Part shown: one piece after another, positions 39,087 through 64,000 of the stretch | Position numbering within the stretch: position 1 is the first letter of the stretch | Layout: every line of letters begins with the position of its first letter | Origin: Bacillota bacterium | GTDB taxonomy: Bacteria > Bacillota > JAAYKD01 | Reading direction: 5' to 3' | Length of the DNA: 64,000 bases | Assembly: GCA_963666425.2 (NCBI GenBank) | Contig: OY762825.2 | Span: 32,001-96,000 of the forward strand | Notes under the pieces: generated by a model | Databases searched by the model: none | What the model was told of the DNA's origin: nothing | The model's input: only the letters and a program-made list of their open reading frames with translations | Made by a program: the position numbers and the translations under genes

Positions 39087-39755
39087 ACGCGGAACGGTCA
39101 AGACCGTTCCCTACCTTGCGTTATTTTGATTAATTAACAGGACGAATTAATTGAAAAGAATTAAGTGCGGAACGATTGAGAATGTTATGCAGTTGCGCGT
39201 AGGTAGGTTAACTCCGTACGAAAGAATGGCACGTTAAGTCGGAGAACGCGGAACGGTCAAGACCGTTCCCTACCTTGCGCATTGGTAAGGATTGAATAGG
39301 TTGAATCAATTAGTAAGAGTGAAGTACGGAACGGTTGAGAATGTTATGCAGTTGCGCGTAGGTAGGTTAACTCCGTACGAAAGAATGGCACGTTAAGTCG
39401 GAGAACGCGGAACGGTCAAGATCGTTCCCTACCTTGCGCATTGGTAAGGATTGAATAGGTTGAATCAATTAGTAAGAGTAAAGTACGGAACGATTGAGAA
39501 TGTTATGCAGTTGCGCGTAGTTAGGTTAACTCCGTAAGAAAGAATGGCACGTTAAGTCGGAGAACGCGGAACGGTCAAGATCGTTCCCTACCTTGCGCAT
39601 TGGTAAGGATTGAATAGGTTGAATCAATTAGTAAGAGTGAAGTACGGAACGGTTGAGAATGTTATGCAGATGCGCATAGTTAGGTTAACTCCGTAAGAAA
39701 GAATGCACGTTAATTTGGAGAACGCGGAACGGTCAAGACCGTTCCCTACCTTGCG
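39087..39755. repeat. Tandem array of 159-bp units, each starting with a GTAG-type REP hairpin (BIME-like)
   Basis: Units start at 39087, 39246, 39405, 39564 and 39722; each contains GGAACGGTC-AA-GA(C/T)CGTTCC-CTAC. Confidence 0.95.
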
Positions 39756-39795
39756 CTTTTGTGATTCATTGATAAGTGTAGAGTGAGGATCAGTT

Positions 39796-58781: not shown

Positions 58782-59948
58782 ATGAGAACCATCATCATTG
58801 TCTTGGATAGTGTGGGCTGCGGCGCTTTGCCGGATGCAGCCATCTATGGCGATCAAAACGCCAATACGCTGGCGCATGTGGCAGATGCGGTGGGGGGGCT
58901 AAAGATCCCTCAGCTGCGCGATCTGGGCTTAGGCAATATTTTGTCGCTCGCCGGAGGAGCAACAGTGGCGTCACCCAGCGCCGCTTACGGTAAAATGGCG
59001 GAGGTTTCGCCCGGGAAGGATACCATCACCGGTCATTGGGAGATGGCAGGCCTAAGGTTGGTGCAGCCTTTTGCGGTTTATCCCGGCGGCTTTCCGGTGG
59101 AGTTGATAGAGCGCCTGGAAGCGGCCATCGGCCGAAAAACTTTGGGCAATGTCGCCGCATCTGGCACGGACATTATCGTACAATTGGGTCCGGAGCATCA
59201 GAAAACCGGTTATCCGATTGTCTATACCTCAGCGGACAGTGTGATGCAAATTGCGGTTCATCTGGAGACGGTGCCCTTGGCACAGCTTTACGCATGGTGC
59301 GAAATTGCCCGCCAACTCTGCCGCGGCAGCTATGAGGTCGCGCGGATCATCGCCAGACCTTTTATCGGTTCGCCGGGGGCATATTTTCGCACGGCCGAGC
59401 GGCACGACTACCCGATTAATCCGGGTGGCAATCATCTGCTGACCTTGCTGCAGGAACGCGGTATTCCGGTTTATGCGGTTGGTAAAATTGCCGACGTGTT
59501 TTGTAATGAGGGTGTCACCGCTTCCTATAAAACAAAAGATAATCTGGATGGCATGCAAATAACCGAAAAGCTGCTGTTGGAGAAAAGGGAAGACTGTTTG
59601 ATTTTCACCAATCTGGTGGAGTTCGATTCGCTTTACGGTCACCGCAATAATCCCAGCGGCTATGCCGGCGCGCTGGAAGAATTCGACCGGTTTTTACCCC
59701 GTTTGCTGCAAAATCTGCAGGCGGATGACTGGCTGATCATCACAGCAGATCATGGCTGTGACCCAACCAGCGTCGGTACGGATCACAGCAGGGAATATGT
59801 GCCGCTGCTGCTTTACGGTCCCAATATCTTGCCGGGAGCCCTCGAGACCCGGAGTTCCTTTGCTGATTTGGGAACCACCATCGCTTACCGTTATGGTTGT
59901 ACAATGCCGCTGCATGGCACCTTGATTCCTGTTCAGTCTAGAAAATAG
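58782..59948 (+). CDS. deoB: Phosphopentomutase
   Basis: LDSVG.G, GKDT..GHWE, YTSADS, TADHG.DP and DHSREYVP motifs. Confidence 0.95.
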   Translation: MRTIIIVLDSVGCGALPDAAIYGDQNANTLAHVADAVGGLKIPQLRDLGLGNILSLAGGATVASPSAAYGKMAEVSPGKDTITGHWEMAGLRLVQPFAVYPGGFPVELIERLEAAIGRKTLGNVAASGTDIIVQLGPEHQKTGYPIVYTSADSVMQIAVHLETVPLAQLYAWCEIARQLCRGSYEVARIIARPFIGSPGAYFRTAERHDYPINPGGNHLLTLLQERGIPVYAVGKIADVFCNEGVTASYKTKDNLDGMQITEKLLLEKREDCLIFTNLVEFDSLYGHRNNPSGYAGALEEFDRFLPRLLQNLQADDWLIITADHGCDPTSVGTDHSREYVPLLLYGPNILPGALETRSSFADLGTTIAYRYGCTMPLHGTLIPVQSRK

Positions 59949-60145
59949 CTGCAGAGCACCTTGATTCCTGTTCAGTTTAGAAAATAGCTGCATGGCACCT
60001 TGATTCCTGTTCAGTCTAGAAAACAGCTGCATGGCACTCTAATTCCCGTTCGATCAATAAAATAGCTGCATCGCACTCTAATTCCCGTTCGATCGATAAA
60101 ATAGCTGCATCGCACTCTGATTCCCGTTCAGTCAGTAAAATAGCT
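59909..60145 (+). repeat. Six tandem 39-bp copies of the deoB 3' end
   Basis: Unit GCTGCATGGCACCTTGATTCCTGTTCAGTCTAGAAAATA, starting at 59909, 59948, 59987, 60026, 60065 and 60104. Confidence 0.95.
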
Positions 60146-60146
60146 T

Positions 60147-60182
60147 AAAAAGGCGGTACTTCGTGTGGAAGTACTGCCTTTT
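60147..60182. terminator. Terminator hairpin after the deoB repeats
   Basis: AAAAGGCGGTACTTC-gtgtg-GAAGTACTGCCTTTT. Confidence 0.8.
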
Positions 60183-60234
60183 GATTTGGTTGATTCGATT
60201 TTGTCACGTTTGCACCATTGTGGTTTGATTTGTA

Positions 60235-60800
60235 TATAAAACTTCAACGTTACAATAATGATATGCTGTGTTGATAAATTTATGGCGAAAATGTAGGGAA
60301 CGGTCTTGACCGTTCCGCCGTAACAATTCACCATTCCGTTGTAGATTTTTACTATTCCAATGTGATAATTCCATCGCGGTTTAGTTTGCACTTAACACTT
60401 CAACGTTGCAAGAATGAAATGCAGTGTTGATCGCTATGTTGCGGAACGGTCAAGACCGTTCCCTACAACTGTTCCAATGTGAATGTTGATCATTACAATG
60501 TGAATCGTTACGGTATGGAATTACCGTTTCGGCGTGGTTTGTACTTAACACTTCAATGATGCGATAATGTTGGATTGATTATTGTATTACAGCGTGGTTT
60601 GCACTTAACACTTCAACGTTGCAAGAATGATATGCAGTGTTGATAAATTTATGGCGAAAATGTAGGGAACGGTCTTGACCGTTCCGCCGTAACAATTCAC
60701 CCTTCCAATGTGAAAATTCCATCGCGGTTTAGTTTGCACTTAACACTTCAACGTTACAATAATGATATGCTGTGTTGATAAATTTATGGCGAAAATGTAG
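60235..60800. repeat. REP mosaic (GTAG-type REP plus shared linkers), left part
   Basis: GTAGGGAACGGTCTTGACCGTTCC at 60293 (+), 60443 (-) and 60662 (+), interrupted copy at 60797; recurring linker CTTAACACTTCAACGTTRCAA..TGTTGAT. Confidence 0.9.
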
Positions 60801-60833
60801 CCAGCTATCAAACGTCAAGTGGCAAAACGAAAA

Positions 60834-62006
60834 TTATATTCTGGGAACATAAGGCTTTTTATCCCTTAAAACAGCAAAAACAATGTTGCATAATTTATGT
60901 GTAACAGCTCCAATTGCCGTCATATAATCTTTTCCTTCGTCGCGTTTCTTCTGGTAAAAAGCAGACATGACCGGATCTTTTTGCGCGGCAACCGTTGCGG
61001 CATTCCAGAGCGCTCTGCGCAGATAAGGTGAGCCTCGCTTCGACATCGTGTTGTGCGTTGAAGTGAAATTACCGGATTGCTTAATCGAAGGGTCAATACC
61101 GGCAAATGCCGCCAGTTTCTTTGGATTTTCGAAATTATCAATATTGCCGATTTCCGAGTAGATCACCGCAGCCGAGGTGACTCCAACACCAATAATGGTA
61201 TCCAGATAGCATTCACATTGGGAATAGATCTGCTCAATCTTATTCTCAATTGCGTCAATCTGTTCTTCAATGAATTGAATCAGATCCACGGTTTGGTGTA
61301 ATTCAAAGCATAGAGCAGCGTTCGCTCTATTCACACCAACAGTGTGTCTGCAGGCGCTGCGGATCTCCAGCGCTTTTTCCTCACCGAAACTGCCGCGGGA
61401 ATGCTTCGCTAAAAAATCAGCCAACCGCTTTGTGCCGAGCTTCAGAATGGCATCCGGTGACGGATACTTGCTGAGCAACTCCAGCGAAGTTTTACCGAAA
61501 ATATTGGAAAACAGCTTGTGATATTCCGGAAAAAGGTGATCCAGCACGCCAATTACATGGTTTTTGTGCTTTGCAATCTCATCAACCAGAGAACAGCGGA
61601 AACGGCATAACTCGCGTAAATTCTGGACATCCTCCGTTTGTACCGCTACGTCGGAATAACGTCCCATGCGGATCACATCCGCGATATAACCGCAATCCAC
61701 CGTATCCGTCTTGGTTTTACGGACAGACATGCGCCGTATGGCGTCGGTGAGCAGGGGATTGACCACATGCAATTCAATTCCTAAATCGAGTAAAACACAA
61801 TAAAAATTCAGCCAGTAATGACCGGTGGCTTCCATGCCGACGCAAATTGCATCTTGCTTTTGGTAAAGAGCGACCTTCTGCAAAAACAATTGAAAGCCCT
61901 CTTCGGAATTTTCAAATGCAAACGAGGGAGCCAGCGCTTGACCACTGGCGTCCACCGCGATCGCCTGGTGACGGAATTTACCGATGTCTACGCCAAAAGT
62001 AATCAT
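60834..62006 (-). CDS. IS110 transposase/recombinase (DEDD RuvC-like plus Tnp20)
   Basis: GVDIGK, MEATGHY, KTD..D, AFAGIDP..QSG and YLRRAL motifs. Confidence 0.96.
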   Translation of the reverse strand: MITFGVDIGKFRHQAIAVDASGQALAPSFAFENSEEGFQLFLQKVALYQKQDAICVGMEATGHYWLNFYCVLLDLGIELHVVNPLLTDAIRRMSVRKTKTDTVDCGYIADVIRMGRYSDVAVQTEDVQNLRELCRFRCSLVDEIAKHKNHVIGVLDHLFPEYHKLFSNIFGKTSLELLSKYPSPDAILKLGTKRLADFLAKHSRGSFGEEKALEIRSACRHTVGVNRANAALCFELHQTVDLIQFIEEQIDAIENKIEQIYSQCECYLDTIIGVGVTSAAVIYSEIGNIDNFENPKKLAAFAGIDPSIKQSGNFTSTHNTMSKRGSPYLRRALWNAATVAAQKDPVMSAFYQKKRDEGKDYMTAIGAVTHKLCNIVFAVLRDKKPYVPRI

Positions 62007-62049
62007 TTACAGCAACTCCTCAAACTGGAATGCGGCAAAGGATGATCTC

Positions 62050-62192
62050 TCTGACGCTGACAGTTGCAACCTCGCGTGAAATACAAGGATTTTACCCTAT
62101 CCAGCCAATACGCAGATTTCTGTCAGATCAGAGGCAACACTCTACATCACAGGAACGATTCCCAGGGAACAGTACGTTGACCTCTGCCTGAC
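62050..62192 (-). ncRNA. Predicted IS110 bridge RNA (target- and donor-binding loops; ends approximate)
   Basis: ACTGTTCCCT and ATGTAG match the REP target; TTGGCT and GCGAG match the IS circle junction; each pair flanks an inner hairpin. Confidence 0.75.
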
Positions 62193-62298
62193 AAAATTAT
62201 ACCACAAAGGGCAAACCCCTTGGATACTTAAAGAGTGGCTTTGGCTCGCTTCCTGTACCCTGTAAATGAGTTACCTTGGCACTACTAGTATATACGAG

Positions 62299-62820
62299 GG
62301 AACGGTCTTGACCGTTCCGCCGTAACAATTCACCATTCCAATGTGAAAATTCCATCGCGGTTTAGTTTGCACTGAATATTTCAACGTTGCAAGAATATTA
62401 GGTTGTCTTGATCGCTATATTGCGGAACGGTCAAGACCGTTCCCTACAACTGTTCCAATGTGAATGTTGATCATTACAATGTGAATGTTGATCATTACAA
62501 TGTGAATCGTTACGGTATGGAATTACCGTTTCGGCGTGGTTTGCACTTAACACTTCAACGTTGCAATAATGAAATGCAGTGTTGATCGCTATGTTGCGGA
62601 ATGGTCAAGACCGTTCCCTACAACTGTTCCAATGTGAATGTTGATCATTACAATGTGGATCGTTACGGTATGGAATTACCGTTTCGGCGTGGTTTGTACT
62701 TATCGCTTCGATGATGCGATAATGTTGGATTGATTTTTGCATTACAGCGTGGTTTGCACTTAACACTTCAACGTTGCAATAATGAAATGCAGTGTTAATA
62801 AATTTATGGCAGAAATGTAG
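62299..62820. repeat. REP mosaic between the two IS110 copies
   Basis: REP remainder at 62299, reverse REPs at 62424 and 62598, interrupted REP at 62817; same linkers as 60235-60800. Confidence 0.9.
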
Positions 62821-64000
62821 CCAGCTATCAAACGTCAAGTGGCAAAACGAAAATTATATTCTGGGAACATAAGGCTTTTTATCCCTTAAAACAGCAAAAA
62901 CAATGTTGCATAATTTATGTGTAACAGCTCCAATTGCCGTCATATAATCTTTTCCTTCGTCGCGTTTCTTCTGGTAAAAAGCAGACATGACCGGATCTTT
63001 TTGCGCGGCAACCGTTGCGGCATTCCAGAGCGCTCTGCGCAGATAAGGTGAGCCTCGCTTCGACATCGTGTTGTGCGTTGAAGTGAAATTACCGGATTGC
63101 TTAATCGAAGGGTCAATACCGGCAAATGCCGCCAGTTTCTTTGGATTTTCGAAATTATCAATATTGCCGATTTCCGAGTAGATCACCGCAGCCGAGGTGA
63201 CTCCAACACCAATAATGGTATCCAGATAGCATTCACATTGGGAATAGATCTGCTCAATCTTTTTTTCAATTGCGTCAATCTGTTCTTCAATGAATTGAAT
63301 CAGCTCCACGGTTTGGTGTAATTCAAAGCATAGAGCAGCATTCGCTCTATTCACCCCAACTGTGTGTTTGCAGGCGCTGCGGATCTCCAGCGCTTTTTCC
63401 TCACCGAAACTGCCGCGGGAATGCTTCGCTAAAAAATCAGCCAACCGCTTTGTGCCGAGCTTCAGAATGGCATCCGGTGACGGATACTTGCTGAGCAACT
63501 CCAGCGAAGTTTTACCGAAAATATCTGAAAAAAGCTTGTGATATTCCGGAAAAAGATGATCCAGCACGCCAATTACATGGTTTTTGTGCTTTGCAATCTC
63601 ATCAACCAGAGAACAGCGGAAACGGCATAACTCGCGTAAATTCTGGACATCCTCCGTTTGTACCGCTACGTCGGAATAACGTCCCATGCGGATCACATCC
63701 GCGATATAACCGCAATCCACCGTATCCGTCTTGGTTTTACGGACAGACATGCGCCGTATGGCGTCGGTGAGCAGGGGATTGACCACATGCAATTCAATTC
63801 CTAAATCGAGTAAAACACAATAAAAATTCAGCCAGTAATGACCGGTGGCTTCCATGCCGACGCAAATTGCATCTTGCTTTTGGTAAAGAGCGACCTTCTG
63901 CAAAAACAATTGAAAGCCCTCTTCGGAATTTTCAAATGCAAACGAGGGAGCCAGCGCTTGACCACTGGCGTCCACCGCGATCGCCTGGTGACGGAATTTA
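62821..64000 (-). mobile_element. IS110-family element, copy 2 (runs off window)
   Basis: Same right end CCAGCTATCAAACGTCAAG directly after AAATGTAG; near-identical to copy 1. Confidence 0.93.
62854..64000 (-). CDS. IS110 transposase, copy 2 (5' end beyond window)
   Basis: Four amino-acid differences from copy 1 in the visible part (N/D, R/K, D/E, N/K). Confidence 0.95.
   Translation of the reverse strand, partial: KFRHQAIAVDASGQALAPSFAFENSEEGFQLFLQKVALYQKQDAICVGMEATGHYWLNFYCVLLDLGIELHVVNPLLTDAIRRMSVRKTKTDTVDCGYIADVIRMGRYSDVAVQTEDVQNLRELCRFRCSLVDEIAKHKNHVIGVLDHLFPEYHKLFSDIFGKTSLELLSKYPSPDAILKLGTKRLADFLAKHSRGSFGEEKALEIRSACKHTVGVNRANAALCFELHQTVELIQFIEEQIDAIEKKIEQIYSQCECYLDTIIGVGVTSAAVIYSEIGNIDNFENPKKLAAFAGIDPSIKQSGNFTSTHNTMSKRGSPYLRRALWNAATVAAQKDPVMSAFYQKKRDEGKDYMTAIGAVTHKLCNIVFAVLRDKKPYVPRI

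Follow-up and report, generated by a model that had tools for sequence, protein, structure and literature searches.

Two insertions at one bond of a repeat

What leads an insertion sequence (IS) to land twice at the same base of the same repeat? We met this question in a 64,000-nt stretch of contig OY762825.2 (the window, meaning this whole stretch), where two copies of an IS110-family element are inserted in repetitive extragenic palindromic sequences (REPs), met here as short imperfect palindromes with a GTAG head that occur in high copy number and are clustered between genes. The reading that we favour, and consider highly probable, is that the IS belongs to the IS110 group and encodes in its left end a bridge RNA, the target loop of which reads both strands of the REP.

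A sequence-only reading of the window had placed both copies directly after AAATGTAG, and direct reading of the junctions agrees: AAATGTAG ends at 60800 and at 62820, and the element starts immediately after both (CCAGCTATC..., opening CCAGCTATCAAACG...). Two REPs that had been described as empty, at 60293 and 60662, are indeed empty paralogues, which read AAATGTAG directly followed by GGAACGGTCTTGACCGTTCC with no insert. Therefore, the insert consists of 1496 bp and one extra AG (CT on the element strand), and the comparison of empty and occupied sites places the insertion point between the GTAG head and the REP hairpin. This bears out the earlier statement that copy 1 splits GTAG from the hairpin and duplicates AG alone. 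The features of the window on which the argument rests are as follows.

60293 to 60316, plus strand: empty REP target, a GTAG head and a 20-nt hairpin with AAAAT before it (sequence reading, REP census)
60662 to 60685, plus strand: second empty REP target, with flanks near-identical to those of copy 1 (sequence reading, REP census)
60793 to 60800, plus strand: left flank of copy 1, AAATGTAG, the REP head; on the element strand, core CT and right target ACATTT
60801 to 62298, minus strand: IS copy 1, a 1498-bp insert made of 1496 bp and one 2-bp core (AG on the plus strand, CT on the element strand); its 3' side reads ...ATACGAG on the plus strand, more fully ...ATATACGAG
60834 to 62006, minus strand: recombinase gene, 390 aa (PF01548, PF02371 and NF033542 matches)
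62299 to 62318, plus strand: right flank of copy 1, the REP hairpin GGAACGGTCTTGACCGTTCC, of which the 3' arm is the left target
62813 to 62820, plus strand: left flank of copy 2, AAATGTAG
62821 to 64000, minus strand: IS copy 2, which ends beyond the window at C1:96318 of the same genome (G000) and is followed there by the hairpin
39087 to 39756, no strand assigned: tandem array with a period of 159 bp and five empty CTACCT (AGGTAG) REPs (REP census, tandem-repeat reading)

Read on the element strand, the order is REP hairpin, CT, 292-nt non-coding left end, gene, 33-nt right end, CT and ACATTT. Together with the empty-site comparisons, this order gives an element flanked by AG/CT on both sides, and by direct reading its ends (CCAGCTATC... 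and ...ATATACGAG) are not inverted repeats. Copy 2 differs from copy 1 at 14 of 1498 positions. All five CTACCT REPs on the plus strand at 39091-39745 and all three reverse REPs reading CTACAA (60443, 62424 and 62598) are empty as well.

The same bond throughout the genome

We searched the genome (G000; 3.21 Mb, 18 contigs) with copy 1 by blastn and found 10 full-length copies, 98.9-100% identical, and one 82-bp fragment. All ten copies lie at GTAG-IS-GGAAC(G/A)GTCTTGAC(C/T)GTTCC, in one orientation relative to the REP. The ten PF01548 matches of the genome are the same ten copies, and all ten have their 390-aa frame intact. Of 40 other genomes searched, one of the same genus (G001) alone contained the element, as one copy with 97% identity; matches in a further genome (G028) were just 29-39 nt long. 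The G001 copy occupies the same bond (AAATGTAG-IS-GGAACGG). Its left flank is orthologous to C1:~2003180-2003210 of G000, where the orthologous site (~C1:2003203-2003230) reads AAATGTAG followed by GGAACGGTCTTGACCGTTCC and is empty, giving a direct comparison of an occupied with an empty site. The shared junction, found in 10/10 copies and in the sister-species copy, is far beyond chance, and the proposed insertion at one exact base of the REP with a 2-bp core thus holds for all of them. At the window locus itself, the contig of G001 that carries the orthologue of the gene at 58782-59948 stops within the REP array, ~100 nt short of the copy-1 site.

Copies at distant loci are identical to each other (560956 and 707990; 1537835, 1540106 and the copy on C17), which points to recent activity. 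In run X2, a contig of 1529 nt covers 60793-62320 at a depth of 59.7 versus ~5.3 for the neighbouring gene, and this depth suggests that the element is multi-copy in that run too. Logan contigs of four of 23 runs (X2, X4, X5 and X6), placed on 59000-62810, break inside the REP arrays. Their joints link REP to REP with 22-26 letters on the shorter side, and none of the contigs of the four runs spans 60293, 60662 or an IS junction to reach unique sequence.

An IS110-group recombinase and its relatives

The recombinase matches PF01548 (E 1.5e-40) and PF02371 (E 8.1e-26), both over the Pfam cut-offs, and passes the NCBIfam family NF033542, 'IS110 family RNA-guided transposase', with 261.9 bits at a cut-off of 140. 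It also distantly matches the solved transposases IS621 (8wt6) and ISCro4 (9t56) with E about 1e-20; the 8wt6 match (E 1.2e-20, 77.5 bits) covers mostly the C-terminal domain. We assign the ~1.5-kb element to the IS110 group of the IS110 family, with a predicted DEDD/Ser recombinase. In the IS110 group, the guide RNA lies upstream of the gene.

A search for relatives of the recombinase confirmed 515 among 587 candidate stretches, and the best 80, mostly from Bacillota metagenome-assembled genomes and isolates, were kept. The closest among these best 80 of 515 have a protein identity of at most 64%. These nearest relatives (L016-L095, Bacillota IS110 elements) have the left-end RNA fold in common with the window element, as well as the left-end start (CGTATA...), the right end (ATAGCYGG) and the CT core. 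Most of them differ from it, judged by eye, in carrying ...CCUCCU at the left-guide position and in being located after CCTCCT, not in REPs. The pairs L019/L020, L047/L048, L060/L079 and L082/L094 (44-51% protein identity) all start directly after CCTCCT; by eye, the reverse complement of their flank is AGGAGG, with ATG a few bases on. Such CCTCCT-site relatives look as though they insert at the ribosome-binding sites of genes.

A predicted bridge RNA with two target guides

The non-coding left end upstream of the recombinase gene contains the following elements, with the RNA sense running along the minus strand.

62007 to 62298, minus strand: non-coding left end, 292 nt, upstream of the recombinase gene, with a predicted bridge-RNA-like fold
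62196 to 62204, minus strand: TGGTATAAT, resembling an extended -10 motif (consensus match by eye), ~9 nt upstream of the first stem
62129 to 62186, minus strand: predicted target-binding stem-loop, with outer stem CAGAGGUC / UUGCCUCUG, inner hairpin GGGAAUCGUUCC and an internal loop that holds both target guides
62164 to 62173, minus strand: left target guide ACUGUUCCCU, in the same sense as the REP 3' arm and core
62142 to 62148, minus strand: right target guide GAUGUAG, complement of CT-ACATC (CTACATC on the plus strand)
62057 to 62126, minus strand: putative donor-binding stem-loop, outer stem CUGACAG / CUGUCAG
62107 to 62101, minus strand: candidate left donor guide UGGCUGG, facing the right-end TAGCTGG
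62075 to 62071, minus strand: candidate right donor guide GCGAG, facing CT-CGT at the start of the left end

The left guide ACUGUUCCCU matches ACTGTTCCCT of the ACAG/CTGT hairpin type at 10/10 positions and ACCGTTCCCT of the commonest hairpin type with 9 pairs and one rU:dG wobble. The right guide GAUGUAG sits 15 nt downstream of the left guide in the RNA sense; its pairing with CTACAT amounts to 6 pairs, and that with CTACCT to 4 contiguous ones. The sequence-only reading had named ATGTAG as the guide to the right target, and this string is found as part of GAUGUAG in the predicted target loop. Of 200000 shuffles of the left end, 3 contained a left match of 10 nt followed by a right match of 6 nt.

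For the fold, we aligned the left ends of 19 sequences, namely the window and 18 of the 80 relatives, hand-picked for non-redundancy and enough upstream sequence. Compensatory changes are present in 16/23 predicted pairs of this alignment. The covarying pairs outline an internal loop bounded by an outer stem and an inner hairpin, followed by a second long stem. In the aligned fold, the window guides lie on opposite sides of the first internal loop. Folded as a single sequence, the left end has z = -2.6. By alignment and folding, the guide-loop fold is conserved and covarying, with guide complementarity to the REP present. In the relative L019/L020, whose boundaries were set from two identical copies, the loop strings UAUCCCUCCU and ACUAAG correspond by eye to the flanks TATCCCTC-CT and CT-TAGT. 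On the donor side, AGCYGG changes jointly in the RNA and the right end of relatives, again by eye. Relatives also carry a similar ...GATAAT / TATAAT at the same place as TGGTATAAT. Compared with 60801-62297 of the window, the G001 copy (L005, on contig C53 of G001) has 2 differences in the 292 nt of the left end and 37 in the 1173 nt of the gene, and the predicted RNA region is thus the better conserved part between the two species.

Proposed mechanism

We propose that the recombinase would be directed by the predicted bridge RNA encoded in the left end, and that the target loop would read both strands of one REP. The left guide would pair with the bottom strand to the left of the core and the right guide with the top strand to its right, both including the core, as PMC11208160 describes for IS621. 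Strand exchange at the CT of the REP CTAC (= GTAG) head would then leave the element between head and hairpin, in one orientation and bounded by CT at either end. Beyond CTAC, the next two bases (AT, CT or AA) could lengthen the right-guide duplex by 2-3 optional pairs. This right-target extension would not be required, since CTACCT sites, with 4 contiguous pairs, are still used. RNA expression, a circular intermediate and catalysis would follow by homology with IS621.

Several observations weigh against this proposal. A sigma-70 scan gave no minus-strand promoter in the left end. The donor loop fits more poorly than the target loop: UGGCUGG matches TAGCTGG with one wobble and its next two bases (AU) mismatch the CT core, and an alternative donor register matches the core but just 4 further bases. 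No joint across the element and no back-joint of a circle or excision was seen in the fragmented Logan contigs of the four runs. Finally, the GGAATGG..CCATTCC hairpin type is unoccupied (0/46 versus 10/127, p = 0.064, not significant), an outcome that two adjacent wobbles would predict. An Rfam scan of 59000-64000 at E <= 1 found no bridge-RNA family, the only match being a chance one to IS128 (20.3 bits versus 80).

Occupancy of REP subtypes

We took a census of all sites in G000 with a GTAG head and a hairpin, and found 163 empty and 10 occupied sites in 30 arrays. The occupied arrays are six, located at 92.3, 557, 701, 1530 and 1580 kb of C1 and at C17:11 kb. The three main hairpin variants differ by compensatory changes. 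By the two bases before GTAG and by hairpin, the sites divide as follows.

AT before GTAG (CTACAT): 7 occupied, 78 empty
AG before GTAG (CTACCT): 3 occupied, 58 empty
TT before GTAG (CTACAA): 0 occupied, 16 empty
Other bases before GTAG: 0 occupied, 11 empty
Hairpin ..ACGG../..CCGT..: 8 occupied, 105 empty
Hairpin ..ACAG../..CTGT..: 2 occupied, 10 empty
Hairpin ..ATGG../..CCAT..: 0 occupied, 45 empty
Hairpin hybrids: 0 occupied, 3 empty

The minimal 11-mer CYGTTCC-CT-AC occurs 121 times in the genome, with ~3 occurrences expected by chance; 117 lie in strict REPs and 4 in variant REPs. Because the 11-mer is found in REPs alone, the REP arrays are the only landing sites, and the suggestion that REPs serve the element as an intergenic landing site is upheld.

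The sequence-only reading had gone further and proposed that the 6-nt right guide AUGUAG confines the element to CTACAT REPs, with CTACCT and CTACAA REPs immune. Within the window the proposal is attractive, as both copies and both free sites are CTACAT and the five CTACCT and three CTACAA REPs are empty, and guide complementarity does reach AU. Seven of the ten copies and the G001 copy lie in ATGTAG REPs. However, that reading had itself named insertions in CTACAA or CTACCT REPs, if equally frequent, as evidence against it, and when we tabulated the flanks of all copies, 3/10 followed AGGTAG (CTACCT; C1:560956, 1537835 and 1540106). These are independent events by the divergence of their flanks relative to the ISs (see below), and they refute the strict rule. 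Occupancy was 7/85 for ATGTAG and 3/61 for AGGTAG sites (Fisher test, p = 0.52), and neither AT versus TT (p = 0.59) nor AT versus the rest (p = 0.21) differed significantly. The REPs lie inside longer tandem units, of 159 bp near 39 kb and of ~120-370 bp around the ISs (60200-62820); REP 'subtype' therefore depends largely on the array and is confounded with array membership. In addition, IS621 needs just CT+AC on this side (PMC11208160). A summed complementarity score was slightly higher at occupied than at empty sites (one-sided Mann-Whitney p = 0.024) in an exploratory test that was devised after the data had been seen and in which the sites are not independent, and the single best guide-matched site is occupied. 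A better guide match thus shows at most a weak trend with occupancy. The natural sites show that the element accepts a left-target wobble and a mismatch at right-target position 5. We consider confinement to one REP subclass very unlikely.

A possible role of the REP system

Instead of the guides of the element, the REP system could pick the site: a transposase resembling REP-associated tyrosine transposases (RAYT) would nick next to GTAG, the IS would use the nick, and the apparent guide would be a captured REP fragment. The genome does hold a candidate gene, a 179-aa open reading frame (ORF) with a Y1_Tnp match over the Pfam cut-off at C1:533030-533401 and REPs on both sides, and the insertion point adjoins the GTAG head. 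The best family for this ORF is NF047646, 'REP-associated tyrosine transposase', but the score of 68.8 bits is below the cut-off of 80. Against a captured fragment, the guides lie in the variable internal loop of a conserved, covarying fold and track the different targets of relatives, and the recombinase family is known as RNA-guided (PMC11208160). We regard a choice of site by the REP system as scarcely credible. Two other Y1 (PF01797) genes, both 245-aa ORFs, lie at C8:4493-4825 and C1:435734-436066, with no REPs in the surrounding 3.3 kb.

Paired copies as separate insertions

Eight of the ten copies form four direct pairs, 199-774 bp apart, within tandem REP arrays. In IS-free coordinates, 8/10 copies have another copy within 1 kb versus 2.6 expected for 10 random sites of the 173 (P = 0.004, 20000 draws), and this clustering in pairs suggests local re-insertion. 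In all four pairs, divergence is far greater in the 100-nt flanks than in the ISs. For the window pair, the left flank is identical at 78/101 positions versus 14/1498 IS differences; the values are 88/108 versus 0/1498 for the pair 1537/1540 and 74/105 versus 1/1498 for the pair 1590/1591. Since the flanks are more diverged than the ISs, the paired copies are separate insertions. It is hardly conceivable, therefore, that the insertions were passively copied with the REP tandem units by segmental duplication and that the junction reflects no target choice, even though most copies are paired in such arrays and those at 1537835 and 1540106 are identical, for the two window copies are each closer to copies elsewhere in the genome (3 and 6 differences) than to each other, the six occupied arrays have unrelated flanks and the G001 copy lies at a site that is empty in G000.

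Two further traces concern the left guide. The copy at C1:706182-707680 has G for A at the equivalent of 62171, which gives the left guide ACCGUUCCCU; in place of the wobble, this guide matches the arm of the commonest REP hairpin perfectly. The 82-bp fragment, at C1:1593457-1593539, is a left-end relic, 86% identical, that directly adjoins a hairpin of the CCATTCC type and lies ~90 bp away from an intact copy. In the hairpin type without intact copies (GGAATGG..CCATTCC), this relic is the sole insertion trace. The rise of occupancy with guide match, the empty hairpin type with its double wobble (0/46), the guide variant, the relic, local re-insertion and a retargeting to REPs from the CCTCCT clade could together mean that the element and the REP family are co-evolving within the genome, an idea that we put forward tentatively and think rather doubtful. 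Read in this way, the relic hints at an earlier guide variant, and the U to C change in the left guide replaces the wobble formed with the commonest REP by a Watson-Crick pair. New copies would favour sites less than 1 kb from an existing copy, as expected of a copy-and-paste intermediate that re-inserts locally.

Comparison with known systems

The RNA-guided reading that we favour places the element beside IS621. The two share a two-domain DEDD/Ser recombinase and a left-end guide RNA with target and donor loops, both predicted here, and also a CT core. In both, the natural target consists of a REP hairpin arm and the CT-AC of the CTAC end, a non-canonical G:T or U:G pair is tolerated, here with the commonest REP variant, and the right guide can extend past 4 bp. 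Choi et al. 2003 is reportedly an earlier study of IS621. They differ in that the window protein is only distantly related to that of IS621, the left end is 292 nt long, and the -10-like motif lies ~95 nt inside the left end instead of spanning the circle junction. Complementarity of the right guide naturally extends over 6-7 nt, the REPs belong to another family and the host probably belongs to the Bacillota. For IS621 itself, PMC11208160 gives ATCAGGC-CT-AC, the CTAC end of the E. coli REP, as the natural target, tolerance of an rG:dT pair at one position and a right guide of which 4 bp are used and 7 bp work better (Durrant et al. 2024).

Other IS110 elements also associate with REPs. A 'type 1' association was reported for ISPa11 (6/6), ISPpu9 (7/7), ISPpu10 (7/7) and ISRm19 (4/4) (Tobes & Pareja 2006, PMC1525189). 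A 2026 preprint on ISPpu10 (10.64898/2026.03.19.712850) describes duplication of CT and a left target that forms the 3' arm of the target stem-loop, and proposes the stem-loop as a second layer of specificity. The two occupied compensated hairpin variants in our genome (CG and CA types) fit a sequence or a structure reading alike. Like ISPpu10, ISPpu9, ISPa11 and ISRm19, the window element duplicates CT, has a stem-loop 3' arm as its left target and finds its targets in intergenic arrays, whereas those four elements come from Pseudomonas and Sinorhizobium. REP targeting here is of the known IS621/ISPpu10 type and leaves the picture of how IS110 elements use REPs unchanged; the supplementary tables of natural IS110 targets in PMC11208160 might already list relatives of the window element. 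What the locus adds is a natural example of bridge-RNA targeting from outside the proteobacterial models, in which a single genome combines 10 copies with 163 empty targets and covers three hairpin variants as well as several head-flank variants. The tolerated positions may help to judge off-target rules of bridge recombinases.

Other repeats near the insertions

A further tandem repeat lies in the window at 59909-60145, with a period of 39 bp, 6.1 copies and 87% matches. It starts within the last codons of a phosphopentomutase-like ORF (58782-59948) and is followed near 60150-60175 by a hairpin with a T run.

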